From Squalus acanthias (Eukaryota), in contig JASTWF010000093.1 in the NCBI GenBank assembly GCA_030390025.1, positions 930,001 through 994,000 of the forward strand: a DNA stretch of 64,000 nt. Reading direction: 5' to 3'. Shown here piece after piece: positions 6,271-54,119 of the stretch (its first letter is position 1; each line of letters starts with the position of its first letter). A program made the translations under genes and the position numbers. A model generated the notes under the pieces. It made no database searches, was not told the origin of the DNA, and saw only the letters and a program-made list of their open reading frames with translations.

Positions 6271-6733
6271 GAAGTTTACATAGCGTGGAGGGTACAATAC
6301 AGCATAGAGAGAAAACTTCTTATATCCTCTCCAAGGAGCGAGGGAGACATTAAGGAGAGTCTTCGCAAATATGGGAGCAGTATCCAAGTCACAAAAGGAC
6401 TCGAGCTATAGAGAGTTAAAGGTATTTGGTGAGAAGTGTTTGGCACAAACGAGGAAACAGCTTTTGAGCAGCCGAGCAATGCAGCAGCTCCATTTGTGGT
6501 CTTGGGAGATAGTGAGGCCAAGAACATTGATAAGTCAAGAAGTGTAGGCCCATGAAAGTTAAAAAGGTGCAGTGGTTTATACTTGTGGAACCAGAGACTG
6601 GAACAGAAGTTTCTGAAGAACTGAAAGAAGATTTCCTTTACTTCAAATGGCATGGAGATCAAGATGTCGTGATTCAGCATTGTATCGCAAGACAACTGGA
6701 GGTTATGAGTACTGAGTGTAGGACACAACTTAC

Positions 6734-7008
6734 CTACAGAAAGACCAAATGTTCGAGAAACTGATTGGTGTAGAACATCATTTCTTAATCTGAATGTGTA
6801 GTTAGAACTCCTATTGGTGTCATTGATTTTCAGAATACTCTGCAGGGAGTATAGACCATCTCCACTTTGTTGGTACGAAGTCTCAGACAGTGTAGAAATA
6901 TCCTCATTTTCTTCATTGTACCAGGAAACAGTAGCCTCAGGGACTCAAATCTGAACACTGTCCCAGATGGTGTTAACTGAATAAAAAAGTCAGGTTCCTT
7001 GTAGTATG
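6734..7008 (-). pseudogene. Copy A exon 3 (IgC-like) with a 10-bp deletion
   Basis: ctacag|CA TAC TAC AAG GAA CCT...GTA G|gtaagt. Reads gagtcc^ctgagg where copy B has gagtcccaaggttaccctgagg. Confidence 0.9.
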
Positions 7009-10029: not shown

Positions 10030-10807
10030 GGAAAAAAGCAGGAAATGGAACAGATTTTTAAGCAAGTGTAGGGGCTGGGAAAGGGGGGAGGGGATGAAAG
10101 AACAAAAGGGAAGGTCTGTGATAGGATAGAAGGCAGGAGAGGTTAAGAGACATTAAGAGATATTCAAGGCAAAAGGAGATGGTAATGGGACAGGTTAAGA
10201 AACAAAGGATGGCTCTAGATGAAGTGTAAATTGCACTGGCAGAATGAAAGACAGCTGCCATGTGGGGGAGAAGAAAAGACAAAAAGGTGTGGATAAAAAA
10301 TATATATAGGATAGGGGCTGAGGTTATGATCTGAAATTGTTGAACTCTATGTTGAGTCCAGAAGGCTGTAAAGTGCCTAATCGAAAGATGAGGTGCTGTT
10401 CCTCGAGCTTACGCTGAGCTTCAGTGGAACAATGCAAGAGGCCGAGGACGGTGAGGTCTGAGTGGGAGTGGAGCAGAGAATTAAACTGACAGGCGACCAA
10501 AAGCTCAGGGTCCCCCTTACGGACTGACCGGAGGTGTTCCGCAAAGCGGTCACCCAATCTGCGTTTGGTCTCCCCAATGTAGAGGAAACCACATCGTGAG
10601 CAGCAAATACAGTATACTAAATTGCAAGAAGTACAAGTAAATCGCTGTTTCACCTGGAAGGGGTGTTTCGGGCCCTGGACAGTGGGAAGGGGGGAGGTAT
10701 AAGGGCATGTGTTGCATCTCCTGCACTTGCACGGGAAGGTGCCGGGTGAAGGGGAAGGGGTGCTGGGGGGTGATAGAGGAGTGGACTAGGGTGTCTCGGA
10801 GGGAGCG

Positions 10808-12499
10808 TGTAGAATTCGCAATATATCGCGATTTTATTAATAAGGAGAAGAACACATAGTTTCGTTCAAACAGCTTTTATTTCAGCAGAATGCTGTCAGG
10901 TTTTCAAAGTGGACACAAGCAGCTTGTAAAATGGCCGCCACGCCTCGTGGCGGAACATTCCAGATTTTTCGATAGGCAGACAAGATGGCGTTCCAATAAA
11001 CATTTGTGCAAGATCGATCAAGACTCAGCACATTTAAGATAATACACGAGACATCATGGGTTTACAGTATACACATAAATACTGAAATCGGTCTCCCAGG
11101 TGCGAATAAGGGCTATTGTACCAAGTAATCAAGGACCCATCCAAAGACATTAATATGTAAAATCCCAACGACTCTACGATGAGAGAGCCGTTAGCGGGTA
11201 GTTACAGAAAACATTTGGAAGCCCCAAAACCCCTCCAGGGAGAACACCGACCGATTAAACAATGGGAGAAATATTAACAGGTACTCAGACAATTACGAGT
11301 ATCCCCGAAACCCATTAAAACGGAGATCACCCTATACAAGAAATTTGAGCGCCAAACCCTAACAAAAGAAAAGACATTAAGGTTGGGCGGGAAAAGGAAG
11401 ATTTTGCACTATAATTACAAGCTCCAAACCGTCCATCTTTCTCTTATTCGGTTGACTCTTATCCTGCTGGCGTTTATCCTCGTGGCTGCTCTTGACTCGC
11501 CGTCTTGTTCCTGTTTGCCTCGTGTCTCTTTTCAAAAGACTGTTGAACTTTACGATCCGCTCGGATCTACCTCGTGGCGTGTCGCGAAGACCTGTGTAGA
11601 ACTGGGCTCTGAAGCCTTGAAGCGGGCGCACCATCCCGATAAGTCGGTAAACGGTGTTGGAACCGAAGGCCCGAGATGAGATGAGATGAGATGAGAAGAG
11701 AAGAAGACCATACTTATCGCCACGGTCAGTAAGCTCCGACCGCGCCTGTAGGTCGAATAGACACTTTCCTTGCCCAGGAAGACTTCTTTTGAGTTCTACA
11801 GAACTGGCACAGGAAGACTATTTTTCAAATTTTATCAGTGCGAGGGCAAAGGAAGACTCTTCTTTGAGCAGTGTCGGAACTCCGAGGACAACACAGATCT
11901 TCATGACAGCAGACGTTCCAGCCTGCTAGCCGGAGCAGAAACGAGTAAACAAGTGGGGTACGGAGACCCCCTGATCGACACGTGGGTGCTGCGGTGAAAA
12001 ACATCCGATCAGAGTTTTCGGAATTCTCCGAGTTATCACGAGTGGTGAGCATGAGTCTCGAATCCTACGAATCTAGCTTAGGACAGATATTGATAGGGGA
12101 GGGTTTTAAGTATTAAGGATAATTGTAATGTGTGCCCCCATTTACGATGTGTCGTTCGTTCCTCGTTTCCCTGAAATTAGTCACATAACTGCGTGTAAGA
12201 TTGTACTGTCATTAATCTGTGCTTATGACATGTATTTCATAATCTTAAATAATATGCAATAAAGATTTTCCATTTCGTACCATTCAACCGAGTCTACCTG
12301 AGTTTTATCTCCATTACTGCTCTCGCATCTAAGTCCAGTGTCAGAACCGTAAGGGCGAGTGGGTCGAACCACTCACAGGTGTCTAGTGCTCCCAGGCTGG
12401 CTGGAGACCAGAACAGGCAACAAGGCCTAAACTCGCACTAGCATCCAGGCTGCACAGAGCCACACGAATCTCACAGGTTGAGAGACAAAAACCCTTACA
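10808..12499 (+). repeat. 5' LTR (1692 bp)
   Basis: Starts tgtaga, ends ttaca; AATAAA at ~12258; direct repeat of 18523-20219. Confidence 0.95.
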
Positions 12500-12503
12500 G
12501 AAA

Positions 12504-14309
12504 ATAGCGACCGCGGCACGAGGCTGGCAGCGAGAGGGTAATGTGTTAGACTTTGGTATGAATGTACGAAATGTCATGCAAGAGAAAATAGCAGATTATG
12601 TGTTCGGAAAAGTAAATTTGACTAAGAAATGGATAAGTGACCTGCTAGTGGATAAGTGTCCACTAGAGGCAGCCGAGAGGTGGACAGATAGCAAGGAACA
12701 TAAAAAGACAGTCGAGAAAGTGGTCTGGTTAATGTGTTATAAGAGACAAGTCCAAATTTCAAACCAGGTCATTACAGCGCAAACAGCTCGGATCAGGCAT
12801 TTAGAGGAGGAAATGGATGAGAAGGTCTCTGGAGGGGAGTTGCTCATTAGGAATTTAAGTGCGCTGCACCGAGAACGCCAGGAAATCACCAGTCACCATA
12901 AAGCAAAAATAGATTACCTCGAGTGCCAGGTCACTGAGGCAAAGTTAAGTGAGGGCAGACTAAAGGAACGATGTGCCCGCCAAGCTGCCCAAATAAAAGC
13001 CCAGGAAGAGAGCTTAACGGGGGTTAGGGCGGCATATAAGATGGCCTTTGAGGATAAGTTTCAGGGGGCCGATCACAGCGTCTGCCAAAAAGAGATAGAG
13101 CACCTTAAAAGGGCCGTGAACAAAGCGCACGGCATGGTGTGTCTTATCAGTCCGTCAGCACACCAGCCACTAGTAGAAGAGGAGTTTCAGAAATTCCCAC
13201 CAAGTAAAGCAAAGGAAGTATTAGCCACTACGCCCTCCGCGCCACCCAGCTATTCGGAAACCTGGGTAAGGGAGGAAGTAGTAGAAGAAACGAAAGAGCC
13301 CACTGAGGGAGAAGTGGAAAAGGGACCGTTGTGTCCGGTTACGGGTACCAAAAGGGGCCCGAACGGAAACGGTGGGGAACAAGGGGATCTCCTCAACCAG
13401 CTTGTGTTGCCTCACAGCTCACACCAGCTGAGGGTTATGATAAGTCACGTACGGAAGCTGACCGAGGCAGACGACCCTTCCGTACATTTCAGGGAAGTTG
13501 AGCAAACCGCAGCCATTAACGGCTGCGACGATGGGGAAACAGCAAAGATGCTGTTATTTTCGTTAGGCAGTTCAATCCTTCAGTGTCTCTCGGACGAGAG
13601 CAAGAGGGGAACCAAGAACTATGAGGCATTAAAAAATGAGGTCCTAGAAGTATTGGGGACGGACGATGAAGGTCCGTTTGTTAGAGTGGGACAGACAGTG
13701 CAGATGGAGGGAGAACCCCCGAAGGTTTTCGCCGACAGGCTGTGGCCAGTATATCAGCGCAGCTGCCCAGGTGCGCCAGAGCGCGACGCTGTGGACGGCA
13801 TCGGTTTAACTCATTGGCTTAGGTGTATAGTAGCCAACAGTTTGCCAGCCGTCAGAGAGCAGGCAAAAGCGTGGTTTGATCCCACTGACCCCAACATTAC
13901 GGAAGAGTCGGTCTTAAATCGACTCACGGTAGGATACCGTAATATCAGGGGTATGGGAACACGTCCCCTTGAGGGAAAAGTACATGAGGTACGACCCGCA
14001 GCCCCGGCTCAAAAGGAGTGGCATCAGGAGGGTAACCGCGCCCCGCAGGCCAGTAATGCTTGTTACGGGTGTGGGAGGACAGGGCACTGGCGCAAGAACT
14101 GCAGGAACCCTTGGAAGGATTCCAGGGATAAAAATCCCGCAGCCCGAGCCCAGATGCCTGTCTCTGTTAGGGAAGCTAGTGCACCCACCCCTCCCGACGA
14201 CCTCGAAACAGTGTTGGGAGCCATGCGCAACTTCATGAGTGCGCATGGAAAAGTGGCGGTTGCTACCGGCCCCGTAGGTGCCACAGGCCCGTCTAATAGT
14301 ACCCAATGA
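12504..14309 (+). CDS. gag: Gag-like protein (N-terminal coiled coil, capsid-like region, one CCHC knuckle); probable original start at 12504 is now ATA, next ATG at 12558
   Basis: Open frame; CYGCGRTGHWRKNC at 14061-14102; PSAPPSY late motif; position directly after the 5' LTR. Confidence 0.88.
   Translation: MATAARGWQREGNVLDFGMNVRNVMQEKIADYVFGKVNLTKKWISDLLVDKCPLEAAERWTDSKEHKKTVEKVVWLMCYKRQVQISNQVITAQTARIRHLEEEMDEKVSGGELLIRNLSALHRERQEITSHHKAKIDYLECQVTEAKLSEGRLKERCARQAAQIKAQEESLTGVRAAYKMAFEDKFQGADHSVCQKEIEHLKRAVNKAHGMVCLISPSAHQPLVEEEFQKFPPSKAKEVLATTPSAPPSYSETWVREEVVEETKEPTEGEVEKGPLCPVTGTKRGPNGNGGEQGDLLNQLVLPHSSHQLRVMISHVRKLTEADDPSVHFREVEQTAAINGCDDGETAKMLLFSLGSSILQCLSDESKRGTKNYEALKNEVLEVLGTDDEGPFVRVGQTVQMEGEPPKVFADRLWPVYQRSCPGAPERDAVDGIGLTHWLRCIVANSLPAVREQAKAWFDPTDPNITEESVLNRLTVGYRNIRGMGTRPLEGKVHEVRPAAPAQKEWHQEGNRAPQASNACYGCGRTGHWRKNCRNPWKDSRDKNPAARAQMPVSVREASAPTPPDDLETVLGAMRNFMSAHGKVAVATGPVGATGPSNSTQ
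12505..12521 (+). promoter_or_regulatory. Primer binding site, tRNA-Arg(UCG)-like, with a TGG>TAG mismatch
   Basis: tagcgaccgcggcacga versus TGGCGACCGCGGCAGGA (complement of a vertebrate tRNA-Arg-TCG 3' end, from recall): 15/17 match, 5 nt after the LTR. Confidence 0.7.
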
Positions 14310-15416
14310 CTAGAGCCCACGCAGCCTGCCTACCTGTGTCCTTTTAAAAGACACGCACAGGAGGGGGTCTCCTGTGAGGAGACCAGGTTAAAAGAGCAGG
14401 CCTTGCGGGAGGAGAACGCCCGTTTAATAGGGAAAATAGATGGGCTAGAAGGGCAGCTTAGAGAGCAGGCCCTGCGGGAGGAGAACGCCCGCTTAATGGG
14501 AAAGTTAGACGTGCTCAGGCTAGAAGAGCAGCTTAGAGAGATAAAAGCAGCCTACAAGGTAGCCAGAAGCAGGGATTTAAACCAGTGCAAACTGTACAAG
14601 CCAGGTGCACAAGGGAAAACCACAGGGGCAAAACATGCGAGTGGGGACTCGCAGCCCCAGGTAGGACCACAAGGCACACAGGCAGGCAGAGCAGCTTGCA
14701 TCAGGGAAGGAGGCATCCTGGAAAATTGTGAAACATTTTTGTGGGGTTGGGAGTCAGATGAGGGAGAGTTCCAGGAACTCGACGAAGATGAGGATAGTGA
14801 TGAGGACGAATGGGAATCGGAGGACGCAAGGGTCGCCCCCGATTCAGGTATAGGGAGGACAGGGGCTGCAGATAGAGATCCACACAGGGTGGACACCGAG
14901 GCTGCAGGTCCCGAACACAGGAGGGAGGAGCTAGGGGAGGTGGAGCCAGCCACTGTGGGACCACAGGGCGTGACGGTGGAAACCTCAGAGCCCGAGCCGC
15001 CCGCCTTGAACGTCCTGCCCTCGGGGGAGGTAGGGATTGCGAGTGAAGGGCCGCCTGCTGGGCCGAGCAGGGCGGTGCCACAAGCTGCAAGTCCCGAGGT
15101 CAGGGAGGCGGAGTCAGGGGAGGCGGAGCCAGCGACTGTGGTGGGACCACAGGTCGTCCCGGTGGAAGTCTCGGAACCCGGTCCGTCGGTCCTGGGATTC
15201 CTGCCCCCGACAACTCCTCGTAGGTCAAATCGGGCACCCCAGCCCAGGAAAATGTGGTCATGTCCCCAGACTGCCCCAAGGCGCAGGCTCAAGGTTAAGG
15301 CAGCCCAGGAAGGGCCCAGTCCCATCGCAGCAGCAACAGGCTGCGGCAGATCAAAGGAAGGGGTCAGTGCCCTCCCACCGTCGGAAAGAGCTCACAGCAG
15401 CCTTCTCAGAATTTAA
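14310..15416 (+). CDS. ORF X: coiled-coil, acidic and Pro-rich protein of unknown function, in-frame with gag behind a leaky stop
   Basis: 368 open codons directly after TGA-CTAG, in the gag frame; no catalytic Pol motifs. Confidence 0.7.
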   Translation, partial: LEPTQPAYLCPFKRHAQEGVSCEETRLKEQALREENARLIGKIDGLEGQLREQALREENARLMGKLDVLRLEEQLREIKAAYKVARSRDLNQCKLYKPGAQGKTTGAKHASGDSQPQVGPQGTQAGRAACIREGGILENCETFLWGWESDEGEFQELDEDEDSDEDEWESEDARVAPDSGIGRTGAADRDPHRVDTEAAGPEHRREELGEVEPATVGPQGVTVETSEPEPPALNVLPSGEVGIASEGPPAGPSRAVPQAASPEVREAESGEAEPATVVGPQVVPVEVSEPGPSVLGFLPPTTPRRSNRAPQPRKMWSCPQTAPRRRLKVKAAQEGPSPIAAATGCGRSKEGVSALPPSERAHSSLLRI

Positions 15417-15721
15417 AGGGGCCGCCCTGGGAACGGGCGGCGCTGTACAGTAATAAGTTTAGGATAAGTTTTTAAGTTCATAGTTTAAGGTTAAGTTTTA
15501 GATAAGTTTATAGTTTTAAATCAGGTTAAGTTTGTAGTTTAATTTTAACAGAAAATGGTAAAATGATGGGAGTTTTAGAGATAGGTTTAGTTAAAGTTTA
15601 TCCAGCGAACATTGAAGTTTACGTGAGGCGAGGTCAGGGGACCCGCTCACCCTTCACAAAAGCCAGAGACTCTTGCGAGGCTGGCTACCTCATTCTATCT
15701 GATCACAGGAACCAAGGAAGG

Positions 15722-18073
15722 ATGGAACGAATTCTAGTATTGCTCGCGGCAATCGGATGTGGATTGGCCTATCGAGGCCGCACCAAAGATGTCGTGGTGT
15801 TTGGATGCTCCGGAGACACGGCCCCCATCGCGGTGGATGGGACCGGAAGACGGGAGGCTGAGGAGACCACCACCTATTTCCACAAGGGAAGGTGGCCAGG
15901 ATGGCTGGGAACGAACTCAACGGAGTATTCCAGCACATCGGGGTTTGCCTACCAAGAGACTTCTTTAATGTGCCCCAAAGTAAGGATCATCGCACCCAGG
16001 ATCAGCGTCACCGTCGGCAAACGGATTTGTTTGACTTGTAGTAGGAATGTCCCATTGAGCCGATGGTGGTGGCTGCGAAAGCTGAGCAGAAACATGAGGA
16101 ACTCTTCGGTCGAGTGGGAACGACTGGGTAATAATACCCATCGGACAATTACGGGGACAAACGGACAAGTGAGGGTCTGTTGGGACAAATGGTGGGAACC
16201 GGATGAGGGAATTTATGTATGCATGTGGGGTTCAAAGTACGCTTGCCCCAAAGGCATCTCCATATTTTTCATTAATCAATGGCAGGATAATGGACAGGGG
16301 ATGAGGTGGGATGCGAGCACCAGAGGGTGCGGAGCCCCATACTCTTCGATCCCGGTAAATGCCACTGAACTCATTACGCGCCCACGCAAAGCCCCGCCCA
16401 CGATTCCGGTGGTTCTAGCTAAAGAGGAAGGGTGCCCTAAAACCAGTAAGGGACCCGGGAATGGTTTGGTACTGGTCCCCACAGACCAGATACTATTTCA
16501 GGGGGTACATTACGCGGTGGCCTCGGTGATTTTAAATCTCACCGAGGTACGGTTACCAGAGTGGTGCCCCAAAAAGACGGAACAGTTATATCAGGTCCTG
16601 TTGACCAAGATGTTCAGACAATTTTACGAATTCGATTTCGCGGAAATTGATAAAACAAGTTTGTACACTGCACCACATGAAGTTTTTGATCAAGTGGGGA
16701 GGCAAAGAAGTGGTGTAGTGAACGACGCGTTCACTGCTTTTAACACGGGTACATCTGTGGTCAACGCTCTAGACAGTGTGGAGCTGCAGACCCAGATTAA
16801 TGGTTTAAAGACGCAATTAAAAGACATTCTAACAGATGAAAATAAAGTGGTTGGGTCGGGTTTACACGAGGACCAAACCATGACTCTCCATTTAAAGGAA
16901 ATTATAGCAGAGCTAGAGAAACATGCAAAGACGGTAAATGCCCTGATTAGGGAAGATCGGAATGCATCCGATCAAGCTGCGCAGAAGGAGGTGTGCGTGC
17001 TTTACGGGGCGTGGTTACTGGGCGAGGGCCGCAGTAATTTGGAGGATTTAAAACAAGGTTTGGTCCCGTCCTGGATAAGTAACAAACACCTGCGGGCGCT
17101 CCACCCTTTTCAGAACGCATTAAGCCCGTGCCAGCTCAGGCTAGCTTCAGAAGCATACCCAGTCCCCGTGGACTGCGGACGATCAAACCATACCATTATG
17201 GGTATAGTACTACGTATGCCGGTTTTGGGCGACACAGCAAAGCCCGCCCCGGTGTATCGGGTAGAGAACATTGGTGTCATTCAGGGGGGAGCCCACATTC
17301 GCTATGCAGCGGTTCCACCCTACGTCATCCGCTGGGAGCAAACGATGACAGGTACAGATCTCTCTGGTTGTCGTGGCAGGGGAGCACACATAATACTGTG
17401 TCCCCAGCACTTGAATGCCTTTTTAACACCACAGTGCGGGTTCAGAACGGCTGGCGCCAAGTCCATGAATTGCACCATGGAGGCAATGGCACAAGATCAT
17501 GTGCCTCCGCAGGTAGCATACATCGGGGGTGGAACATATTGTGTTACCACTGCAGCGCAACACTACCAGCATGGAAACCGTAGCCGGTGTCCGGTGAGTG
17601 ACAGCAGTTTCTGTTTCAAACCCAGGGCGGAAGTTCAAGTAGCACAACAGCGAATTGTCCCAATCCCTGAACCATCCACTGTTCATCTAACAGTAAAAGA
17701 GAATTTCACCGACTTGCAGCGATTCGTCGCGCATTTCGGATACCTCATTCCCCCTCTCCCTGAACACCTCACCAAGCTTTTAAAAGCCGTCGCGGTGTCA
17801 CAAAAACATTTTTACACACTAGAGCAGAAAACTGTCGAAATAGGGACAGACATTCTGGATATAGTAATTCCACCGTGGTGGAATCTGTTCACCAATATTG
17901 AAGTACCGTCCTGGATCAGAATAGCCTCCCACATTTTAGTTGTATGCCAAGTTTTTATTGTAGTGTACCTGTTGGTCGTACATTGTAAGAGAGGCAAACG
18001 CCTCACCAAGCACGAAAACACGGGAGAGTGGCGAGAACGTTACGTGCGCGTGCACGATGAAAGCACCGTGTAA
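15722..18073 (+). CDS. env: Env-like type I membrane glycoprotein (783 aa), F-type class I fusion protein-like, with an N-terminal Ig-like domain
   Basis: Signal peptide MERILVLLAAIGCGLA; RQRS/G then a fusion-peptide-like stretch and heptad repeat; Cys-rich region; several N-X-S/T sites; C-terminal TM ILVVCQVFIVVYLLVV. Confidence 0.85.
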   Translation: MERILVLLAAIGCGLAYRGRTKDVVVFGCSGDTAPIAVDGTGRREAEETTTYFHKGRWPGWLGTNSTEYSSTSGFAYQETSLMCPKVRIIAPRISVTVGKRICLTCSRNVPLSRWWWLRKLSRNMRNSSVEWERLGNNTHRTITGTNGQVRVCWDKWWEPDEGIYVCMWGSKYACPKGISIFFINQWQDNGQGMRWDASTRGCGAPYSSIPVNATELITRPRKAPPTIPVVLAKEEGCPKTSKGPGNGLVLVPTDQILFQGVHYAVASVILNLTEVRLPEWCPKKTEQLYQVLLTKMFRQFYEFDFAEIDKTSLYTAPHEVFDQVGRQRSGVVNDAFTAFNTGTSVVNALDSVELQTQINGLKTQLKDILTDENKVVGSGLHEDQTMTLHLKEIIAELEKHAKTVNALIREDRNASDQAAQKEVCVLYGAWLLGEGRSNLEDLKQGLVPSWISNKHLRALHPFQNALSPCQLRLASEAYPVPVDCGRSNHTIMGIVLRMPVLGDTAKPAPVYRVENIGVIQGGAHIRYAAVPPYVIRWEQTMTGTDLSGCRGRGAHIILCPQHLNAFLTPQCGFRTAGAKSMNCTMEAMAQDHVPPQVAYIGGGTYCVTTAAQHYQHGNRSRCPVSDSSFCFKPRAEVQVAQQRIVPIPEPSTVHLTVKENFTDLQRFVAHFGYLIPPLPEHLTKLLKAVAVSQKHFYTLEQKTVEIGTDILDIVIPPWWNLFTNIEVPSWIRIASHILVVCQVFIVVYLLVVHCKRGKRLTKHENTGEWRERYVRVHDESTV

Positions 18074-18510
18074 TCGGAAAATGGCGTCACTCCCGCTTGC
18101 CACGTGCGCCTCGGAAGTGTTGTACTCGATCGTGATTTTTTCGGAAACTGTAAATACGTTTGGAACTCGACATGTTTTAAGAGTTGGTGTTGATTATTTT
18201 GGTGATGGTGTTGTAGTTAAAAATGATTGTTTGGTTTTGTTTTGTTTTTCCTTTTCCCTAAATAAAAAGATGAATATACAGGTGATACGAGAGGCATCGG
18301 CCTGGTTACGCCTGGAAGGAAAACAAGTGGTGTAAGTTTGAAGGCAAATAATGCCTACGGTGCTATAAAATGTAATTTTCTTGGGAAATAAGGACGACGC
18401 AAGGACCCTAGATAGTTTAAGTTATGGGATTAATTTTCTGGATCTGGAGAAATCGAGATAATATTGCTCACCACTATATTTTTGATACGATAAGCGGAGT
18501 TATTCGCATC

Positions 18511-18522
18511 AACAGGAGGGAC
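18511..18522 (+). promoter_or_regulatory. Polypurine tract
   Basis: aacaggagggac immediately before the 3' LTR. Confidence 0.7.
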
Positions 18523-20219
18523 TGTAGAATTCGCAATATATCGCGATTTTATTAATAAGGAGAAGAACACATAGTTTCGTTCAAACAGCTTTTATTTCAG
18601 CAGAATGCTGTCAGGTTTTCAAAGTGGACACAAGCAGCTTGTAAAATGGCCGCCACGCCTCGTGGCGGAACATTCCAGATTTTTCGACAGGCAGACAAGA
18701 TGGCGTTCCAATAAACATTTGTGCAAGATCGATCAAGACTCAGCACATTTAAGATAATACACGAGACATCATGGGTTTACAGTATACACATAAATACTGA
18801 AATCGGTCTCCCAGGTGCGAATAAGGGCTATTGTACCAAGTAATCAAGGACCCATCCAAAGACATTAATATGTAAAATCCCAACGACTCTACGATGAGAG
18901 AGCCGTTAGCGGGTAGTTACAGAAAACATTTGGAAGCCCCAAAACCCCTCCAGGGAGAACACCGACCGATTAAACAATGGGAGAAATATTAACAGGTACT
19001 CAGACAATTACGAGTATCCCCGAAACCCATTAAAACGGAGATCACCCTATACAAGAAATTTGAGCGCCAAACCCTAACAAAAGAAAAGACATTAAGGTTG
19101 GGCGGGAAAAGGAAGATTTTGCACTATAATTACAAGCTCCAAACCGTCCATCTTTCTCTTATTCGGTTGACTCTTAACCTGCTGGCGTTTATCCTCGTGG
19201 CTGCTCCTGACTCGCCGTCTTGTTCCTGTTTGCCTCGTGTCTCTTTTCAAAAGACTGTTGAACTTTACGATCCGCTCGGATCTACCTCGTGGCGTGTCGC
19301 GAAGACCTGTGTAGAACTGGGCTCTGAAGCCTTGAAGCGGGCGCACCATCCCGATAAGTCGGTAAACGGTGTTGGAACCGAAGGCCCGAGATGAGATGAG
19401 ATGAGATGAGATGAGAAGAGAAGAAGACCATACTTATCGCCACGGTCAGTAAGCTCCGACCGCGCCTGTAGGTCGAATAGACACTTTCCTTGCCCAGGAA
19501 GACTTCTTTTGAGTTCTACAGAACTGGCACAGGAAGACTATTTTTCGAATTTTATCAGTGCGAGGGCAAAGGAAGACTCTTCTTTGAGCAGTGTCGGAAC
19601 TCCGAGGACAACACAGATCTTCATGACAGCAGACGTTCCAGCCTGCTAGCCGGAGCAGAAACGAGTAAACAAGTGGGGTACGGAGACCCCCTGATCGACA
19701 CGTGGGTGCTGCGGTGAAAAACATCCGATCAGAGTTTTCGGAATTCTCCGAGTTATCACGAGTGGTGAGCATGAGTCTCGAATCCTACGAATCTAGCTTA
19801 GGACAGATATTGATAGGGGAGGGTTTTAAGTATTAAGGATAATTGTAATGTGTGCCCCCATTTACGATGTGTCGTTCGTTCCTCGTTTCCCTGAAATTAG
19901 TCACATAACTGCGTGTAAGATTGTACTGTCATTAATCTGTGCTTATGACATGTATTTCGTAATCTTAAATAATATGCAATAAAGATTTTCCATTTCGTAC
20001 CATTCAACCGAGTCTACCTGAGTTTTATCTCCATTACTGCTCTCGCATCTAAGTCCAGTGTCAGAACCGTAAGGGCGAGTGGGTCGAACCACTCACAGGT
20101 GTCAAGTGCTCCCAGACTGGCTGGAGACCAGAACAGACAACAAGGCCTAAACTCGCACTAGCATCCAGGCTGCACAGAGCCACACGAATCTCACAGGTTG
20201 AGAGACAAAAACCCTTACA
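18523..20219 (+). repeat. 3' LTR (1697 bp)
   Basis: Differs from the 5' LTR by about 8 substitutions and one extra ATGAG unit (counted by eye). Confidence 0.95.
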
Positions 20220-21032
20220 AGCGGTCCCTACGGAATGCTGAAAGGGGAGGTGAGGGGAAGATGCGTTTGGTGGTGGGATCACGCTGGAGGTGGCGGAAAT
20301 GGCAGAGGATGATCCGTTGAATGTGGAGGCTGGTGGGGTGAAAGGTGAGGACAAGGGGAACTCTATCGTGGTTCCGGGAGGGAGGGGCAGGGGTGAGGGC
20401 AAAAGTGCGGGAGATAGAACGGACACAGTCGAGGGCTGTGTCAACTACGGTAGAGGGGAATCCTCGGTTGAGGAAAAAGGAAGACATGTCGGAAGCACTG
20501 GTATTCCCAACCCCTACACTTGCTTAAAAATCTGTTCCATATCCTGCTTTTTTCCAGTTCTGACGAAAGGTCATCGACCTGATACGTTAACTCTGTTTCT
20601 CTCTTCACAGATGCTGCCTGACCTGCTGAGTATCTCCAGCATTTTCTATTCCTGCTCCTATTTCTTATGTTCTTATGTAAATAGACAGGGGCTGTTTCTT
20701 TGAAATATTCTTTTCAGCTCCATGAACAATATTTACTTGGGAATTATCCACCTTGCCCATTAAAATTACCCAACATCACAAGTGAAACCCTTCGGTCCCA
20801 GACCTGAAACGTTAACTCTATTTCTCTCTCCACGGATGCTGCCTGACCTGCTGAGTATTTCCAGCATTTTCTGTTGTTATTTCAGATTTGCAGCATCTGC
20901 AGTATTTTGCTATTACAAGTGAAACTACTGTTATTGCTTTGGGCCATTGCTCAGTGGTGAAAAGACCACCTGAAACTGTGTAGATCGTTCATTCTAATGT
21001 GTGCAAGGAAACAGTTACATTTAAAGACTTAC

Positions 21033-22204: not shown

Positions 22205-22811
22205 AAGAAGAAAAGAAGAGGGCCGGAAGATCCGAGGGGTGTGTGTGTGTGTGGCTTTTGAAAGAACTAGGCCGCACACACCACTAATTAAACACCCCTT
22301 CCCATTGCCTGACCTGGGCCAGCTGGAGCTGCCTAGGTGAAGTCCCCCAACTCAATTAACCTGATTGGGGCATCGTTAAGACCTGGTGCAGGACTGAGCC
22401 TGGGCATCTCCAGCTTTCCCAGGTGAAGACATCTTCTCCCCCCACCAGAAGACCACCGGAAAGGACTCTAATTTACATCGGAGAGTGCACCCCCTGCCAA
22501 CACCCACCCAACCACCATCCTGAGTGGCGACCCTGCCCTTGCGGCTTCCCTCCTTCCCACCCCCTCTCTCTCTCGCTTTGTCTCTTGTCTCTCTCTGCCT
22601 CTCTCTCTAAGAGGCACCTCATTAAACTTTTAATTAAGTACCCATTGAGCAGAGGGGAGAAGGCCCCTCTCCTAATTAATTCATATAAAGGGAGAGGTGT
22701 GCTTCAATTTAAGAGCTCCCTCTGCTCAGGGAAAAAAAAACAATACCAAGGCCATTAACACCTTCAGGCCTGTGACTTGGGGTGAGTGTAGCCCTTAAGG
22801 ACCAACCCATC

Positions 22812-24962
22812 ATGGCGACCACATCTTCGCCGGTGGCGGGGGCAGCGAGGACGTACGCAAGCGTGGCAGCCGCGGCCACGGCCGCAGCCACGGGTCCTCC
22901 TGTTACCCCGTCACCTTTTACCCTCCTCACGAGGAAGAATGGGGTCAAGAGCTACACTCACCCCAACATGACGATAGAGGCGTGCGTTAAAGCCATGGCT
23001 GGGGTTGTCGGCCCTTCAGCCATCGTCGCCGCCTCTAAAATGTACGGCAAGGCTGTGTTCTTTCTGGGGTCGGAGCGGGCGGTGTCCCTGGCCATCGAGA
23101 AGGGGCTCACCGTGGGCGGGACCTTCCTGCCGGTGGACCCCCTTGAGGCCACCGCGCAAAGGATCGTCATCTCTAACGTCCCGCCCTTTGTTCCGGGTGA
23201 GCTCCTCCTCCCCCAACTACGTCAACTGGGGGAGGTGAGGTCGGGGATCACACCCATCCCGCTCGGCTTCCGGAAAGCCAGCCTCCGGCACGTCTTCTCC
23301 TTCCGGCGCCAGCTTTTCGTCCGGCTGGCGCGGGAGGAGGACGCGGACGGCGCGTTCACGGTGCTCCACGGGGGGACCGCCCACCGCGTCTTCTGGACCT
23401 CGGACGGCGTGCGGTGCTACGCCTGTAAGGAGGTGGGGCACGTCCGGAAAAACTGCCCCGCCTCCAAGGCCGCCACGACACCTGGCGCGGCCAGGGCTGG
23501 CGCCGCCGCCCCCCCTCCCCCTGATACTGTCCGTGCGTCGAGGACAACGGATGCGCGGTCGACGTCGGGGGCCAACACCATCACGGCCTCCGGCGGGGGG
23601 GAGGGAGAGCGTCCGGGGGGAAGGAAGGCGCTGAGAAAAACTAAACACCTCAGGGCGGGTCCCCTCGTGGAGGAAACTACCGATTTGCCCGAACTCACGC
23701 CCGCGCTCATCGCGGAGTTGACGGGGACGCGTGAGACTGGGGGGGTCCTCGTGCCCGGGCCCGTGACCGAAACTGCCGAGGCAGAGCAATCAAGACCTGC
23801 GGCCGGGCTCGGGCCCGAGGGGCCCAAGGAACCCAGTCATCGGGAGGGGGCAGAGAGGGAGGCCCCGGCAGACATGGAGGCCTCTCCCTCCCTGGGCCCC
23901 AATATTTTAAAAAGGAGGCGCAACACCCAGGAGGAGGACTGCGAGGAGGAAGGTCCCTCCGCAGAAGGGGAGTCGTCACCCGCCGCGGGTGCTGCGCCCC
24001 ACCCCACCACCGTCATCGTCGCGCGTGATCGGCAGGGGTCGCCTGTCCCTCGGGAGGGTGAGGCAGCCGAGTCTGTCCGACCTGTGCCTCCCGGGGATGG
24101 GGAAGAGACCCTGCCCGTGGGTGGGGCCGCGGAACAACCCGCGGAAGAAAATAATATGGTGCCAGAACCGTTGCTCCTCGCCGGGTCGGGCGTCCTGGGG
24201 ACTGGGGCGGGCGAGGCCAAAGAGGCTGAAGCCGAGCCCGCCATTTACAACCCAGATATATCCCAGGGACTGCTCGACCTGGTGGAGGAGTACAACAATC
24301 CCCAGCCCGCTGGGTCGGAGGCTGGTGGCGGGGAGACAGAAAGCCCCCTGACTCCGTCTCTGATGTTGGCGCCGGACGTACTGGAGGACCTTGGAATTGT
24401 TTTTTCCCCGGTTTCTCCGGTCGCTCCGGCGCCTGAGGCGGAGGGGGGCCCCGAACCGCCGCCGCCTCCCGGCCCGGCGCCCCTGAAGGAGCCCAGGGTG
24501 GCCTCCTCTGCCACCGATCCTGGGGGTGGGATCGTGACGGAGGCGGGGCCGGCCGGTGCGGCCGAGCCGTTCGCTGCACCCCGTGCGACGGACGGGTTGG
24601 CCGCTGGTGACGACCTCCCGGAGGAGGACGGGGACTCGGTGTTGGGCACCGAGGATGATTTGGAGTCCATCGGCAGTGAGACGATGGACGCCCTCGTGCC
24701 CTTCACCGACTCTCCCCTCATCCCCGTAGGGGAACTCCGGGATTTTATGGCCATGCACCAGGGTCGTCACAAGAAGATCCGGCTGGCCCTCGACAAGTGG
24801 TCGGAGCTGGCGCTGCTCGTCCGGTCTGTCCGCGCCGCCGTTAAAATCATGGGCGCGGACAAGGACGTAAACCGGGCCGAGCTGCGTCGGCTCAAGGCGT
24901 TCCACGCTGGGCTGCTGAGGGAGTGGCGGTCGTCAGTGACCGCGCTCCCTCCCCCCCGTTAG
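22812..24962 (+). CDS. Tx1 ORF1 (RNA-binding/CCHC protein with a long acidic, Pro-rich tail)
   Basis: VVGPSAIVAASKMYGKAVFFL...ISNVPPF...RHVFSFRRQ...CYACKEVGHVRKNC, typical of Tx1 ORF1. Confidence 0.88.
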   Translation: MATTSSPVAGAARTYASVAAAATAAATGPPVTPSPFTLLTRKNGVKSYTHPNMTIEACVKAMAGVVGPSAIVAASKMYGKAVFFLGSERAVSLAIEKGLTVGGTFLPVDPLEATAQRIVISNVPPFVPGELLLPQLRQLGEVRSGITPIPLGFRKASLRHVFSFRRQLFVRLAREEDADGAFTVLHGGTAHRVFWTSDGVRCYACKEVGHVRKNCPASKAATTPGAARAGAAAPPPPDTVRASRTTDARSTSGANTITASGGGEGERPGGRKALRKTKHLRAGPLVEETTDLPELTPALIAELTGTRETGGVLVPGPVTETAEAEQSRPAAGLGPEGPKEPSHREGAEREAPADMEASPSLGPNILKRRRNTQEEDCEEEGPSAEGESSPAAGAAPHPTTVIVARDRQGSPVPREGEAAESVRPVPPGDGEETLPVGGAAEQPAEENNMVPEPLLLAGSGVLGTGAGEAKEAEAEPAIYNPDISQGLLDLVEEYNNPQPAGSEAGGGETESPLTPSLMLAPDVLEDLGIVFSPVSPVAPAPEAEGGPEPPPPPGPAPLKEPRVASSATDPGGGIVTEAGPAGAAEPFAAPRATDGLAAGDDLPEEDGDSVLGTEDDLESIGSETMDALVPFTDSPLIPVGELRDFMAMHQGRHKKIRLALDKWSELALLVRSVRAAVKIMGADKDVNRAELRRLKAFHAGLLREWRSSVTALPPPR

Positions 24963-24987
24963 GTAGAGGTTGCACTATGCTTCTGAG

Positions 24988-27900
24988 ATGAAGATAACCA
25001 TAGCCAGCCTCAACATCAACGGCAGCAGGGAGGCGCGCCGTAGATTCAATAACTTCTCGGTCCTTCGGGACGGGAAATATGCGGTGTGCTTCCTGCAAGA
25101 AACCCACACCGTTCCGGGAGACGAGGCCACGTGGCTCCTGGAGTGGCAAGGAGGGGTCAGCATGAGTCACCTCTCCAACAATTCCTGCGGGGTGGCCGTC
25201 TTGCTGGCCCCGCATTTTCAGCCGGAGATCTTGAGGGTCAAGGAGCACGTGCCGGGCCGCTTGCTCCAGGTCACTGTTTGCCTGGGAGGCGTGCCGCTCC
25301 ATTTGGTGAACGTGTACGTCCCCCAGACCGGTGCGCAGCAAGTGCGCTTCTTCGGAGAAGTGTCCGCTCTTCTGGGCTCCATCGACGTGGGCGAGTGCGT
25401 CATCCTCGGGGGGATTTCAATTGTACCCTCGAGGCGCGGGACCGGTCGGGTCCCCCGCGAAGCCCGGCGGCGATGGAGAAGTTGCGGGACCTGGTCGGGT
25501 CCTTCGACTTGGTGGACGTCTGGCGAAATCTCCATCCCGACTCCAGCGCCTTCACTTGGGTGGGGTCTGGAGGAGGAAGGTCCAGAATCGACCGCCTTTA
25601 CATTTCCCGGGCGTACGTCTCCTGCGTTCCGGCGGCTTCCATGCGGTCGGTGCCGTGCACAGACCACCACCTGGTGTGGGCGGAGCTCGCTCCGCTGCGC
25701 GCGCTGGGGGGGCTCCGCGTACTGGCATTTTAACAACCTGCTGCTGGAGGACGCGCGGTTCTGGGATTCGTTTCGCCGGTTCTGGGCCGACTGGAGAAGG
25801 AAGCGGGGAGGCTTCCCCTCCTTGAGGCTATGGTGGGACGTGGGCAAGGCTCACGTCCGCGTCTTCTGTCAGGAGTACGCGAAGGGGTCGACCAAGAGGC
25901 GGGAGGCCCGGGTCGGGCGATTGGAGAAAGAAGTGCTCGACCTGGAGTCCCGTCTCGGTCAAGTCGTCGAAGACCCGGCTCTGCGGAAGGTGTACAAAGA
26001 GAAGAAGGGCGCGCTGAAGGACCTGCAGTTGGTCGGGTCCCGAGGCGCGTACGTGAGGTCGCGGATCCAGTTCCTGCGGGACCTGGACCGCGGCTCCCCC
26101 TTCTTCTACTCGCTGGAAAAAAGACGGGGGGTCCGTAAGCAGCTCTTGGGGCTGCTGGCCGACGACGGATCTCTGGTCTCGGATCCGGAGGGCATCAGCG
26201 CGGAGGCCCGGGCCTATTACGGGGCTCTGTTCTCTTCGGATCCGTCCAGCGAGGATGCGCGCAGAGTTTTGTGGGAGGACCTGCCGAAGGTCGGCCCGGA
26301 GGGCGCCAAGAATTTAGAAGCTCCGCTAAGCCTGGCGGAGCTGACCGGCGCCCTGCGCCAGCTCTCGAGGGGCAAGTCCCCGGGGCTGGACGGGCTGACC
26401 GTGGAGTTCCACAGGGCGTTCTGGGACGTCTTGGGGGACGACTACGCGCGGGTCCTGGGGGAAAGTCTGGTGACCGGGGAGATGCCCCTCTCTTGGCGCA
26501 GGGCGGTCATTGTCCTGCTGCCCAAGAAGGGCGATATCTGCCGCCTTAAGAACTGGCGCCCGGTCTCCCTCCTCAGCACGGACTACAACATTTTCGCCAG
26601 GGCTATGTCTGCTCGCCTTGGCACCGTGCTGGCCCACATGATCCACCCCGACCAGTCCTACACGGTCCCGGGCCGGTCCATCCACGACAACATCCACCTG
26701 GTCCGGGACCTGGTCCACCATTCCCAGAGGGCTGGTCTGTCGGTCGCCTTCCTTTCCCTGGATCAGGAGAAGGCGTTCGACAGGGTGGATCACGAGTATC
26801 TTTTCGGGACTCTGCGCGCATTCGGGTTCGGGAAGCATTTCGTCGCCCGGATCCGACTTCTGTACGCCGCCGCGGAGTGTCTGATTAAAGTTAACGGGTC
26901 TTTGACGGCGCCCCTTCGCTTCGGGAGGGGGGTGCGTCAGGGATGCCCCATGTCCGGTCAGTTATACGCCGTTTGCGTGGAGCCTTTCCTGCGCCTCTTG
27001 CGGAAGAGGTTGACGGGACTGGCTCTGCAAGGGCCGGGCGTGGAGGTGGTCCTCTCGGCTTACGCCGATGACGTGCTCCTCGCGGTCACAGATCCCGTCG
27101 ACTTGCAGAGGATGCGGGATTGCCAGCAGATTTACTCGGACGCATCCTCCGCCAAGATCAACTGGGAGAAATGTTCTGGACTCCTGGTGGGCCCATGGCA
27201 GGTGGACTCCCTGCCGGAGGAGTTCAGGCCCTTCGCCTGGAGCACAACGCACCTCCTCTACCTGGGAGTCTACCTTAGCCCGGCCGAGGTCGCCTGGCCG
27301 GCGAACTGGCAAGAGCTGGAGGCCAAAGTCACCGCTCGCCTAGGGCGCTGGACGGGACTGCTCCGAGTGTTGTCCTACAGGGGTCGAGCGCTGGTCATAA
27401 ACCAGCTGGTGGCCGCCATGTTGTGGTACCGGTTGGTCACTTTGATCCCTCCCCCTGCGTTTGTCGCCAAGATGCAGAAGAAGCTCGTCGGCTTCTTCTG
27501 GGACAAAAGGAATCACTGGGTCTCTGCCGCGGTTCTGAGTCTCCCGCTTAGGGAGGGCGGTCAGGCGCTGGTGTGCCTTCGCACCCAGGCGGCGACATTC
27601 CGTCTTCAGACGCTGCAGAGATACCTGTACGTGGAGAATCCTCCTAGGTGGCGTGCACTGGCGACGTATTTCTTCCGCCAGCTGTACGGCCTCAATTACG
27701 ACACGCAGCTCCTGTTTGTGAGAGTGGGCGGCACGCGTGCCAGCCTGCGGGAGCTGCCTGTCTTCTACCAGGAACTGCTATGGGTTTGGAACAGAGTCGC
27801 CTCCAGGCGCAGTTCTCCCCCGTCAGGAGCGGCGGCCGTCCTTCCGGAGCCGCTGCTCAGGAATCCGCACCTCCTCGACCGCGGGTTCGGTAGGCTGGCG

Positions 27901-28887
27901 GAGGGCAGGGCTGTACCCGATAAGGTGACTAGAGTCGGGGACCTGCTCGATGGCGGAGGAGCGGGCTGGATGGCGCCGGAGGAGTTGGCGAGGCGCATGT
28001 CCTGGGTCAACGTCCGGCTCGCGGTCAATGCCATCGAGTCGCTAAAAGTGGCATTGGGCCCCGACTCCACTAGGTGTGTCGAGGAGGCTCAGGCACGTGG
28101 GGCGATCCCGTCCGAGCTGACCCCCATTCGGACGGAATTCCTTATCGGCGCCCGGCCCCGAATCCTCCCTCGGGAGCCGCCGCCTCACCACTTGAGCCTT
28201 CTCGGAGAAATGCCCTCCGTGCCCTTTCAACCCGCACGGAGGCGTTTCCTGTACGGGCTGCTCCTGCACACTTTCCACTTTGCCATCTTCGTCTGCCGTC
28301 CGGACACGCCTTGACGTACCATCTTGCCGTCCGGCAGAGGCGAAGGTCCCCAATGGAGGGCTCTCTACGCGGGAGTCTTCCCTTGTTCTATTGGGGACTT
28401 GGCCTGGAGGGTGTTGCACGGAGCAGTCCCGTGCAATAGGTTATTAAGTAGGTTTACGGACTCCCAGGCCGCTTGCCATTTCTGCGGCCTGGAGGAGTCC
28501 GTATTTCACGTATATATAGAGTGTGAGAGGTTGCAGCCCCTCTTTCATTACCTGAAGGGGCTGCTCCTCAATTTCTGGTTGCACTTCAGCCCCACGCTCC
28601 TGATCTACGGTCACCCGTTGCGGAGGGGAGCGGGCAGGTCGGAGGACCTCCTCGTGGGACTGCTCCTGGGCCTGGCTAAGAAAGCCATTAATTGGTCCAG
28701 GCAGCGGGCGGTCGAGGAGGTCGTTCGGCCCGATTGCCTGCCTCTCATCCGCGGCCATGTTTGCGCCCGGGTGGCCCTGGAGATGGAGCACGCGGTGTCC
28801 GCCGGCACGCTTGAGTTTTTCCGCGACCGGTGGGCGCCACGGGGGCTGGAGTGCATCGTCACCCCGGACTACCAAATTTTAATTTGA
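24988..28887 (+). pseudogene. Tx1 ORF2 (APE-RT-ZnF) with two compensating frameshifts and one nonsense codon
   Basis: SLNING, FLQETH, GDFN...SRID...DH (in the shifted frame ~25410-25710), KSPGLDG, NWRPVSLL, LDQEKAFDRV, GVRQGCPMS, YADD. TGA at 28312; CHFC...H...C after it. Confidence 0.9.
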
Positions 28888-51696: not shown

Positions 51697-54108
51697 CACC
51701 ACGGGATACACTCACTGGAAGGAGACACCGCGGGACACTCTCACTGGGAGGAGACACCGCGGGACACATTCACTGGGAGGAGACACCGCGGGACACACTC
51801 ACTTGAAGGAGACACCGCGGGACACACTCACTGGAAGGAAACACCGCGGGACACACTCACTGGAAGGAGACACCGCAGGACACACTCACTAGAGGGAGAC
51901 ACCGCGGGACACACTCACTGGAAGGAGACACCGCGGGACACACTCACTGGAAGGAGACACCGCGGGACACACTCACTGGAAGGAGACACCGCGGGACACA
52001 CTCACTGGAAGGAACCACCACGGGACACACTCACTGGAAGGAGACACCGCGGGACACACTCACTGGAAGGAGACACAGCGGGACACACTCACTGGAAGGA
52101 GACACCGCGGGACACACTCACTGGAAGGAGACACCGCGGGACACACTCACTGGAAGGAGACACCGCGGGACACACTCACTGGAAGGAGACACCGCGGGAC
52201 ACACTCACTGGAAGGAGACACACCGCGGGACACACTCACTGGAAGGAGACACCGCGGGACACACTCACTGGAAGGAGACACCGCGGAACACACTCACTGG
52301 AAGGAGACACCGCGGGACACAGTCACCGGAAGGAAACACCGCGGGACACACTCACTGGAAGGAGACACCGCGGGACACACTCACTGGAAGGAGACACCGC
52401 AGGACACACTCACTGGAAGGAGACACCGCGGGACACACTCACTGGAAGGAAACACCGCGGGACACACTCACTGGAAGGAGACACCGAGGGACACACTCAC
52501 TGGAAGGAAACACCGCGGGACACACTCACTGGAGACACCGCGGGACACACTCACTGGAAGGAGACACCGCGGGACACACTCACTGGAAGGAGACACCGCG
52601 GGACACACTCACTGGAAGGAGACACCGCGGGACACACTCACTGGAAGGAGACACCGCGGGACACACTCACTAGAGGGAGACACCGCGGGACACACTCACT
52701 GGAAGGAGACACCGCGGGACACACTCACTGGAAGGAGACACCGCGGGACACACTCACTGGAAGGAGACACCGCGGGACACACTCACTGGAAGGAACCACC
52801 ACGGGACACACTCACTGGAAGGAGACACCGCGGGACACACTCACTGGAAGGAGACACAGCGGGACACACTCACTGGAAAGAGACACCGCGGGACACACTC
52901 ACTGGAAGGAAACACCGCGGGACACACTCACTGGAAGGAGACACCGCGGGACACACTCACTGGAAGGAAACACCACGGGACACACTCACTGGAGACACCG
53001 CGGGACACACTCACTGGAAGGAGACACCGCGGGACACACTCACTGGAAGGAGACACCGCGGGACACACTCACTGGAAGGAGACACCGCGGGACACACTCA
53101 CTGGAAGGAGACACCGCGGGACACACTCACTGGAAGGAAACACCGCGGGACACACTCACTGGAAGGAGACACCGCGGGACACACTCACTGGAAGGAGACA
53201 CCGCGGAACACACTCACTGGAAGGAAACACCGCGGGACACACTCACTGGAGACACCACGGGACACACTCACTGGAAGGAGACACCGCGGGACACACTCAC
53301 TGGAAGGAGACACCGCGGGACACACTCACTGGAAGGAGACACCGCGGGACACACTCACTGGAAGGAGACACCGCGGGACACACTCACTGGAAGGAGACAC
53401 CGCGGGACACACTCACTGGAAGGAAACACCGCGGGACACACTCACTGGAGACACCACGGGACACACTCACTGGAAGGAGACACCGCGGGACACACTCACT
53501 GGAAGGAGACACCGCGGGACACACTCACTGGAAGGAGACACCGCGGGACACACTCACTGGAGACACCGCGGGACACACTCACTGGAAGGAGACACCGCGG
53601 GACACACTCACTGGAAGGAGACACCGCGGGACACACTCACTGGAAGGAGACACCGCGGGACACACTCACTGGAAGGAGACACCGCGGGACACACTCACTG
53701 GAAGGAGACACCGCGGGACACACTCACTGGAAGGAACACCGCGGGACACACTCACTGGAAGGAGACACCGCGGGACACACTCACTGGAAGGAGACACCGC
53801 GGGACACACTCACTGGAGAGACACCGCGGGACACACTCACTGGAAGGAGACACCGCGGGACACACTCACTGGAGACACCGCGGGACACACTCACTGGAAG
53901 GAGACACCGCGGGACACACTCACTGGAAGGAGACACCGCGGGACACACTCACTGGAGACACCGCGGGACCCACTCACTGGAAGGAGACACCGCGGGACAC
54001 ACTCACCGGAAGGAGACACCGCGGGACACACTCACTGGAAGGAGACACTCCGCGGGACACACTCACTGGAAGGAGACACTCCGCGGGACACACTCACTGG
54101 AAGGAGAC
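51697..54108. repeat. 29-bp minisatellite (acaccgcgggacacactcactggaaggag), roughly 80 copies
   Basis: Direct tandem repeats; the 29-aa period in translation equals 3 units. Confidence 0.97.
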
Positions 54109-54119
54109 ATGCTATAATG

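Follow-up and report, generated by a model that had tools for sequence, protein, structure and literature searches.

A large pol-less endogenous retrovirus family in Squalus acanthias, probably derived from a pol-bearing relative in the same genome

We examined a 64,000-nucleotide (nt) stretch of the Squalus acanthias genome (GenBank assembly GCA_030390025.1, contig JASTWF010000093.1, positions 930,001 to 994,000 of the forward strand), here called the window, which carries a retrovirus-like element at positions 10808 to 20219. Between two long terminal repeats (LTRs), the element contains gag, env, and, in the slot of pol, an open reading frame (ORF) that we call ORF X (Table 1). We found it to be a member of a large pol-less endogenous retrovirus (ERV) family and not a one-off rearrangement. 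The original prediction, made from the letters of the window alone, had described LTRs about 99.5% identical, a 4-bp target-site duplication (TSD), a polypurine tract, a primer-binding site (PBS), three uninterrupted ORFs, and no pol enzyme motifs between the LTRs, and most of this anatomy was recovered. The LTRs, with TG...CA termini, are 99.5% identical, being separated by 8 substitutions and a single 5-nt indel in a microsatellite, and all three frames are free of stops. The PBS is present, but it matches tRNA-Arg(UCG) imperfectly in this insertion. A six-frame scan of the element found neither D[TS]G[AS] nor [YF]xDD, and the single HHCC-like pattern lies on the minus strand and crosses stop codons; the one CCHC knuckle is in gag, and Pfam identified no Pol domain in X. 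With LTRs, PBS, polypurine tract, and TSD present and the enzymes missing, the element has the makeup of a non-autonomous LTR retroelement. Rfam matched nothing in the window.

Because the two LTRs have diverged by 0.47%, the bony-fish substitution rates quoted in one study (1-2.5e-9 per site and year; PMC10699275) give an insertion age of ~1 to 2.4 million years, or more if sharks evolve more slowly. The insertion, which split a minus-strand frame of the Penelope GIY-YIG type, is worn: its PBS matches at 15 of 18 positions, its gag has lost the start codon, and its Env cleavage motif departs from the canonical form. One mismatched PBS position also destroys the gag start codon that is kept in pol-bearing copies and in a skate relative. 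The beginning of the PBS is canonical in all eight other insertions (L004-L011). The PBS complement matched 431 T-loop sites in the genome, one of which was checked as tRNA-Arg; long tandem arrays with a 1.62-kb period (G000:C26:38.99-42.2 Mb) also match the 3' end of tRNA-Arg(UCG).

Table 1. Features of the element and its flanks (window coordinates)
Feature	Position	Strand	Remarks
TSD, left copy	10804..10807		Identical 4 bases at 20220-20223
5' LTR, 1692 nt	10808..12499	+	Motif matches only: TATA-like site (11410), AATAAA (near 12258)
PBS, tRNA-Arg(UCG)	12505..12522	+	15/18 match in window insertion; overlaps family gag start codon
gag	12504..14309	+	N-terminal coiled coil, helical middle, CCHC knuckle; first remaining ATG at 12558 (583 aa)
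UGA-CUAG gag stop, putative readthrough site	14307..14313	+	Context as at helper gag-pol border
ORF X, 368 codons	14310-15416	+	Stop-free frame directly behind gag
X part 1, first 11 pol codons	14310..14341	+	Alignment to pol start of L051 and L052
X part 2, 236-nt coiled-coil cassette, 69-nt internal repeat	14342..14577	+	Stands in for ~3.6 kb of pol
X part 3, integrase C-terminal tail, acidic, low complexity	14578..15416	+	In-frame counterpart behind integrase core and SH3 in L014-L020
env, 783 aa	15722..18073	+	Possible immunoglobulin-like head, paramyxovirus-F-like class I fusion body, one transmembrane helix
Polypurine tract, 10/11 purines	18511..18521	+	
3' LTR, 1697 nt	18523..20219	+	
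TSD, right copy	20220..20223		

When the internal region was used to query the genome, 30 matches were scored, of which 11 were full-length copies, 2 were partial copies with the same layout, and 17 matched only from window positions 14575 to 14578 onward. Comparison with a pol-bearing sister family, represented by members of this last group, resolved the composition of X. The window matches it up to 14341 and again from 14578, so that X comprises 11 codons from the start of pol, a 79-codon cassette, and a 278-codon integrase tail. About 290 of the 368 codons (~79%) are pol remnants, and the cassette, which is in frame, replaces the pol segment between them. In all seven pol-bearing loci examined among the 17 (L014-L020), integrase runs in frame into X sequence from about residue 90, with 95.5 to 97.8% DNA identity to the window over the tail. 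The claim that X is unrelated to pol therefore fell: its start and its integrase tail are recognizable as Pol, and what stands apart is the cassette, which was absent from the nine pol-bearing loci examined. The description of X as an open frame and not a deletion scar held insofar as the frame is kept open across subfamilies, but most of its codons are leftovers of pol. In the helper, as we call the pol-bearing form, the acidic, low-complexity tail behind the SH3 domain is 280 residues long, open in six of the seven loci, and nearly neutral in its evolution.

We counted copies as junction or motif sites, with duplicates included, and these counts are not numbers of intact elements. The 26-nt pattern of the pol-less junction was found, at up to 2 mismatches, at 1107 genome sites, the pol-type junction at 2191, and the reverse transcriptase (RT) motif at 2187, while reversed-pattern controls gave 0. 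The window's own subfamily, searched by its exact 3' junction, was found at 43 sites. L001-L003 represent one insertion present three times, with a common left flank. The eight other full-length pol-less insertions have different flanks, and their TSDs are 4 bp in five, 3 bp in two, and 5 bp in one. The pol-bearing family has the same LTR ends, tRNA-Arg PBS, gag, env, and 4-bp TSDs (4 bp in both pol-bearing copies for which the TSD was read). In two of its 5' regions, Pol contains protease, RT, tether, RNase H, integrase, and SH3 domains, and two partner pairs share termini and primer site with the pol-less form (L051/L016 and L052/L019), each with one break in pol. The check proposed with the original prediction, namely many gag-X-env copies with their own TSDs alongside a pol family sharing LTR ends and PBS, was thus borne out, and the shared termini, primer site, and TSD length favor the non-autonomous, helper-dependent element that it had suggested, which it also supposed to make enveloped particles of its own. 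On these sequence comparisons, the dependence of the pol-less family on a helper appears well supported. In two places (G000:C3295:86898-118557 and C1:143657923-143673389), cassette matches lie ~7.6 to 8.1 kb apart, a spacing that suggests tandem arrays of pol-less proviruses sharing LTRs. In L013, an LTR end is joined straight to the cassette start, with no gag between.

The gag, env, tail, and LTRs of the two forms are 93 to 98% identical and interleaved in trees. We consider it probable that the pol-less family is a non-autonomous derivative of the pol-bearing ERV of the same genome and was amplified with helper enzymes. That it is instead a separate satellite lineage whose pol slot holds an unrelated gene, as was originally proposed, seems very improbable: the 79-codon cassette has neither a helper counterpart nor a database relative, but 79% of X is pol, and gag, env, tail, and LTRs are intermixed with those of the pol-bearing family.

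Several comparisons indicate that segments are exchanged between the two kinds of genome. In trees of gag and of the tail, copies with pol fall at scattered positions among those lacking it, and for the tail an approximately unbiased (AU) test rejected a single pol-bearing clade (p=0.008; 7 versus 29 rows, with 9 rows, 8 distant and 1 duplicate, left out). Long and short LTR types each occur on both forms, and L007 and L051 are 96.9% identical from end to end. L011 and L048 differ from the window by 9% in gag and by 3% in the tail. Across 35 copies, the correlation of distances between gag and tail was 0.66, compared with 0.8 to 0.9 within one region. One divergent tail type was found behind the cassette at 202 sites and behind integrase at 2. 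The simplest cause of these mosaics would be template switching in shared particles.

The frame of X was open in most of the copies that we read. In an even sample (10 copies, taken at every tenth place among the first 100 exact junction matches in the list), X was open to the family stop in 10/10, with lengths of 372 to 410 aa and 77 to 90% identity to the window; overall, X is open across subfamilies that are 10 to 23% apart. None of the 11 full-length loci had an early stop, and 9 ended at the family motif. A further set reached the family stop in 3/3. The cassette is joined to the tail through at least four different junctions, all in frame. Gap runs were a multiple of three in 11 of 13 cases in X (14 copies), compared with 5 of 16 in the spacer between X and env (9 copies; Fisher p=0.008). 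Based on shared variants, the ratio of nonsynonymous to synonymous polymorphism (pN/pS) was 0.35 for gag, 0.11 for the 5' part of env, 0.95 for the tail, and 0.68 for the cassette. Pairwise dN/dS against the window was 0.25 to 0.45 for the 3' part of gag, 0 to 0.51 for the first 290 nt of env, 0.52 to 1.44 for the tail, and 0.27 to 0.58 for the cassette, where changes were very few. These ratios point to purifying selection on gag and env, and the open frame of X itself looks to be under selection, its residues much less so.

In the scheme that we favor, pol-less RNA would be packaged with helper Gag-Pol in cells that also express the helper, tRNA-Arg(UCG) would prime synthesis, and helper enzymes would carry out reverse transcription and integration, with template switching between co-packaged RNAs producing the mosaics. 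The env RNA would be spliced at the acceptor-like site before 15722. Ribosomes reading through the UGA would make Gag-X where the helper makes Gag-Pol, and this readthrough into a long open frame may shield the unspliced RNA from nonsense-mediated decay (NMD). The stop with its context, UGA-CUAG, was present in all 47 cassette-bearing loci examined and in both pol-bearing 5' regions. In Moloney murine leukemia virus (MoMLV), such readthrough is described as protecting the RNA from NMD (PMC7566565), and a frame kept open while its residues drift would fit the same protection here. We tentatively rank NMD protection as the likeliest of the options for the open X frame, short of an even chance, with a structural role of the extra coil second.

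We weighed this against X as a passive deletion scar, whose first junction was in frame by chance and whose openness reflects young copies and tails resupplied from helpers; the cassette would then be a hitchhiker or the carrier of a cis-acting RNA signal. The tail pN/pS of about 0.9, a tail that is also open in most pol-bearing loci, and low synonymous change in the cassette are what a scar would show. On the other side stand the repeated in-frame junctions, the excess of in-frame indels, and the skew of the divergent tail type toward the pol-less background (202 versus 2). The predicted RNA stem behind the gag stop had z scores of -1.1 to -2.8, no better than those of neighboring segments, and among 31 distinct copies it had 0 two-sided changes and 29 broken cells, which speaks against an RNA signal. 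We regard the scar and the accompanying view of the cassette, taken jointly, as unlikely.

Several observations weigh against our preferred scheme. We infer readthrough, packaging, expression, and NMD protection from sequence. Expression was looked for in 4 of 10 runs, where one contig, from sequencing run X2 (RNA only by guess), reads across from gag into the cassette with 9 differences over 252 nt; it showed no splice joint and is uninformative on expression either way. The site counts include duplicates, such as L001-L003. The even sample, drawn from exact junction matches, favors young copies, and in the top-scoring set (n=23), 17 copies reached the family stop and 1 ran past it, but 5 ended early. 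Copies may owe both their open tail and the selection on gag and env to sequence inherited from helpers by recombination. In the tail tree, few branches were well supported, and the 5 label changes compare with a shuffle mean of 6.5, with 31 of 500 shuffles as low. Gene conversion between proviruses could also produce the mosaics. Finally, the conserved synonymous sites of the cassette (pS 0.041 versus 0.15 to 0.23 over most of the tail) are not explained by NMD protection alone.

The cassette, a coiled coil with a 69-nt repeat, is likely derived from the Gag coil, judging by alignment statistics. Compared with the coil of Gag itself, 20 of 49 columns are identical, and 3/1000 shuffles and 9/1000 heptad-preserving shuffles scored as well. 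Against a skate Gag, the whole cassette was equaled by 25/1000 shuffles and 18/1000 heptad-preserving shuffles, and its second unit by 0/1000 and 1/1000, respectively. The match was seen before it was tested (BLASTP E=0.013), and a Rab11-FIP3 coil profile also matches the cassette, below cut-off. Searches for a donor found none: of the 40 best DNA matches, the 30 loci examined were all family copies; a negative-context cassette pattern returned only further subfamilies, one frameshifted family copy, and one chance match in a long interspersed nuclear element; a degenerate cassette motif returned only gag of an older subfamily (L074 type), with no DNA similarity to the cassette; a protein search with X residues 10 to 95 gave nothing at E<=1; and an Atlas search with the cassette gave only scores of 0.85 or less.

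A different reading is that Gag-X is a working protein, which places a second Gag coil in the Gag-Pol slot of the lattice or binds helper Gag or Gag-Pol in a way that favors the satellite. Across 13 copies, the cassette has 93% amino-acid identity, compared with 67 to 76% for the tail; neither stops nor indels were seen in it across the compared pairs and columns; and its similarity to the Gag coil beats 991 of 1000 heptad-preserving shuffles, with that of the second unit to the skate Gag matched only once in 1000. However, a cassette pN/pS of 0.65 to 0.76 on few changes (0.76 across the 13 copies, with synonymous divergence low too) gives no clear constraint at the protein level, and the post hoc nature of the Gag match, the Rab11-FIP3 profile, and the missing donor further weaken the case, so that we think a working Gag-X rather unlikely. 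A still bolder version, which we consider doubtful, is that the cassette acts as a selfish module carried by recombination: a duplicated Gag coil, produced as Gag-X through readthrough, that takes the place of pol, so converting complete viruses into satellites, and helps these capture helper Gag-Pol. This would explain the near identity of the cassette across subfamilies whose gag and tail are 10 to 20% apart.

The only relative of Gag that we found is one skate protein (P0001, 54% identity), and the CCHC knuckle and the position of the gene support its identification as Gag. The single-sequence structure model had a predicted local distance difference test (pLDDT) score of 41, too low to judge a capsid fold, and no Foldseek match. 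In the family, the start codon of gag and the beginning of the PBS overlap, only four bases past the LTR (L051, L052, and L074), and the skate protein begins at the same place. There is nearly no leader, and therefore any packaging signal must sit in the LTR or within gag. An older gag subfamily (L074; G000:C7:128055100-128055800) has 75% DNA identity to the window gag and looks closer to the skate protein; one motif found 4 sites of this type. Among longer proteins, we found no fused Gag-Pol relatives, which is weak evidence.

As originally predicted, Env is of the F type. Its model (pLDDT 59) is well predicted in the body and poorly in the first 230 residues, and it matches the F proteins of human parainfluenza virus 3 (E 4e-11) and respiratory syncytial virus (E 3e-10), at only 9 to 15% identity; the Env profile also matches foamy virus Env (E 2e-4). 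The N-terminal 200 residues are unrelated to foamy Env and to paramyxovirus and pneumovirus F and possibly immunoglobulin (Ig)-like. In foamy viruses, pol is not in the gag frame, unlike the pol of the helper. Among L001-L020, env was full length in 15 of 18 readable loci, and outside the window insertion the basic cleavage site was canonical in 14 of 15. An AG acceptor-like site lies directly upstream of env. Half of the 10 Env relatives looked up were from sharks or skate, and 3 were from frogs. An Ig-like head on this Env is possible: residues 85 to 200 (window 15970-16330) gave Atlas matches to Ig families at 0.87 to 0.89, below 0.9, and one homologue has a weak V-set match. The head has a pLDDT under 50 and no BLAST match to an Ig-labeled shark relative. 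In three database proteins (P0008, P0011, and P0039), pieces of related Env are fused with C2H2 zinc-finger, cadherin, or F-box domains, and these are either gene-model artifacts or exonized env.

The snakehead retrovirus (SnRV) has an arginine tRNA primer and an in-frame gag-pol stop. We compared the helper RT by eye, over five motif blocks (75 residues) and with no tree, with the rows of a published supplement (PMC7947760), and counted 61/75 matches to the SnRV row, 43/75 to a row in the Loki consensus section, and 40/75 to murine leukemia virus. The helper has LPQGF where the compared Loki rows have CPFGY (PMC7947760). On these motifs, the helper looks SnRV-like rather than lokiretroviral. 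The best integrase match in the PDB was foamy virus, and a scan of viral contigs found no relative. Of the two lineages first suggested, ordinary Gypsy is ruled out by the tether and second RNase H in the helper Pol (PF17917/PF17919 followed by PF00075 in L051), and Loki is doubtful on the RT counts.

It is unlikely, in our estimate, that the family is a strict lokiretrovirus, which would be the first in cartilaginous fish; in the lokiretrovirus study, 0/3 Chondrichthyes genomes screened were positive (PMC7947760). The family shares with lokiretroviruses an F-like Env with a basic cleavage site, a dual RNase H, and a coiled-coil Gag (PMC7947760). The tether region resembles Loki rows by eye, and the heptamer of the stop context occurs 17 times in the Loki supplement, once in a passage that looks like a gag-pol border (PMC7947760). 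Yet the RT motifs differ, and although Env has the Mononegavirales-F-like layout with basic cleavage site, fusion peptide, and transmembrane segment, this is not diagnostic of Loki, given that walleye epsilonretrovirus and foamy Env match the fold too. Moreover, SnRV-like ERVs, named clade Huo in one account (PMC6001957), are already known from the elephant shark as CmiERV lineage I (PMC4422223). Cartilaginous hosts are thus known for this clade, but for the elephant shark 100 to 700 ERV insertions are quoted (PMC4977317), compared with ~3,300 junction sites here.

The EAV-HP element of chickens belongs to another retroviral group. It resembles the shark family as a pol-less ERV that spread, but the available description gives ~75 sites per bird and describes no kept readthrough frame or coil cassette (PMC10164170). 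Zebrafish BHIKHARI is likewise non-autonomous and recently active with an intact Gag, but Bik-2 has neither pol nor env, whereas the shark family keeps env and the readthrough frame (bioRxiv 2024.03.25.586437). ENS-1 is a non-autonomous form of ENS-3 with a coiled-coil Gag and also spread without pol. In the literature covered, which excluded Repbase, subscription journals, and preprint supplements, we found no pol-less, env-keeping satellite family of the SnRV-like clade and no description of such a family in cartilaginous fish.

Elsewhere in the window, positions 22776 to 28311 (plus strand) hold a GC-rich non-LTR retrotransposon, Tx1-like by look, with a CCHC-bearing ORF1 and an RT-bearing ORF2, and positions 6279 to 6944 (minus strand) hold what is probably a host exon, an open frame encoding a butyrophilin-like Ig-C domain. 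A GC-rich minisatellite (43999-45097) and an 84-copy, 29-nt tandem repeat (51697-54109) both give rise to long spurious open frames.

Since most of X is pol, the satellite family is less exotic than the first reading made it, yet it is better supported, because a helper and recombination with it were found. Among the cases that we found, known pol-less ERVs keep only gag (BHIKHARI and ENS-1) or have a low copy number (EAV-HP). Of the ~3,300 sites of the present family, about a third are pol-less, and the pol-less form keeps gag, env, and an open readthrough frame while recombining with its helper. The family is therefore a large natural data set on how defective retroviruses and their helpers coexist in a germ line, and on whether gag-stop readthrough can be kept for RNA stability with no enzyme downstream. 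If the cassette were a selfish module, this would be an endogenous helper-satellite system of long standing, equipped with a hijacking protein of its own. The family also represents a young, high-copy retrovirus with an F-type Env in a cartilaginous fish, which is useful for placing the SnRV-like and Loki lineages.

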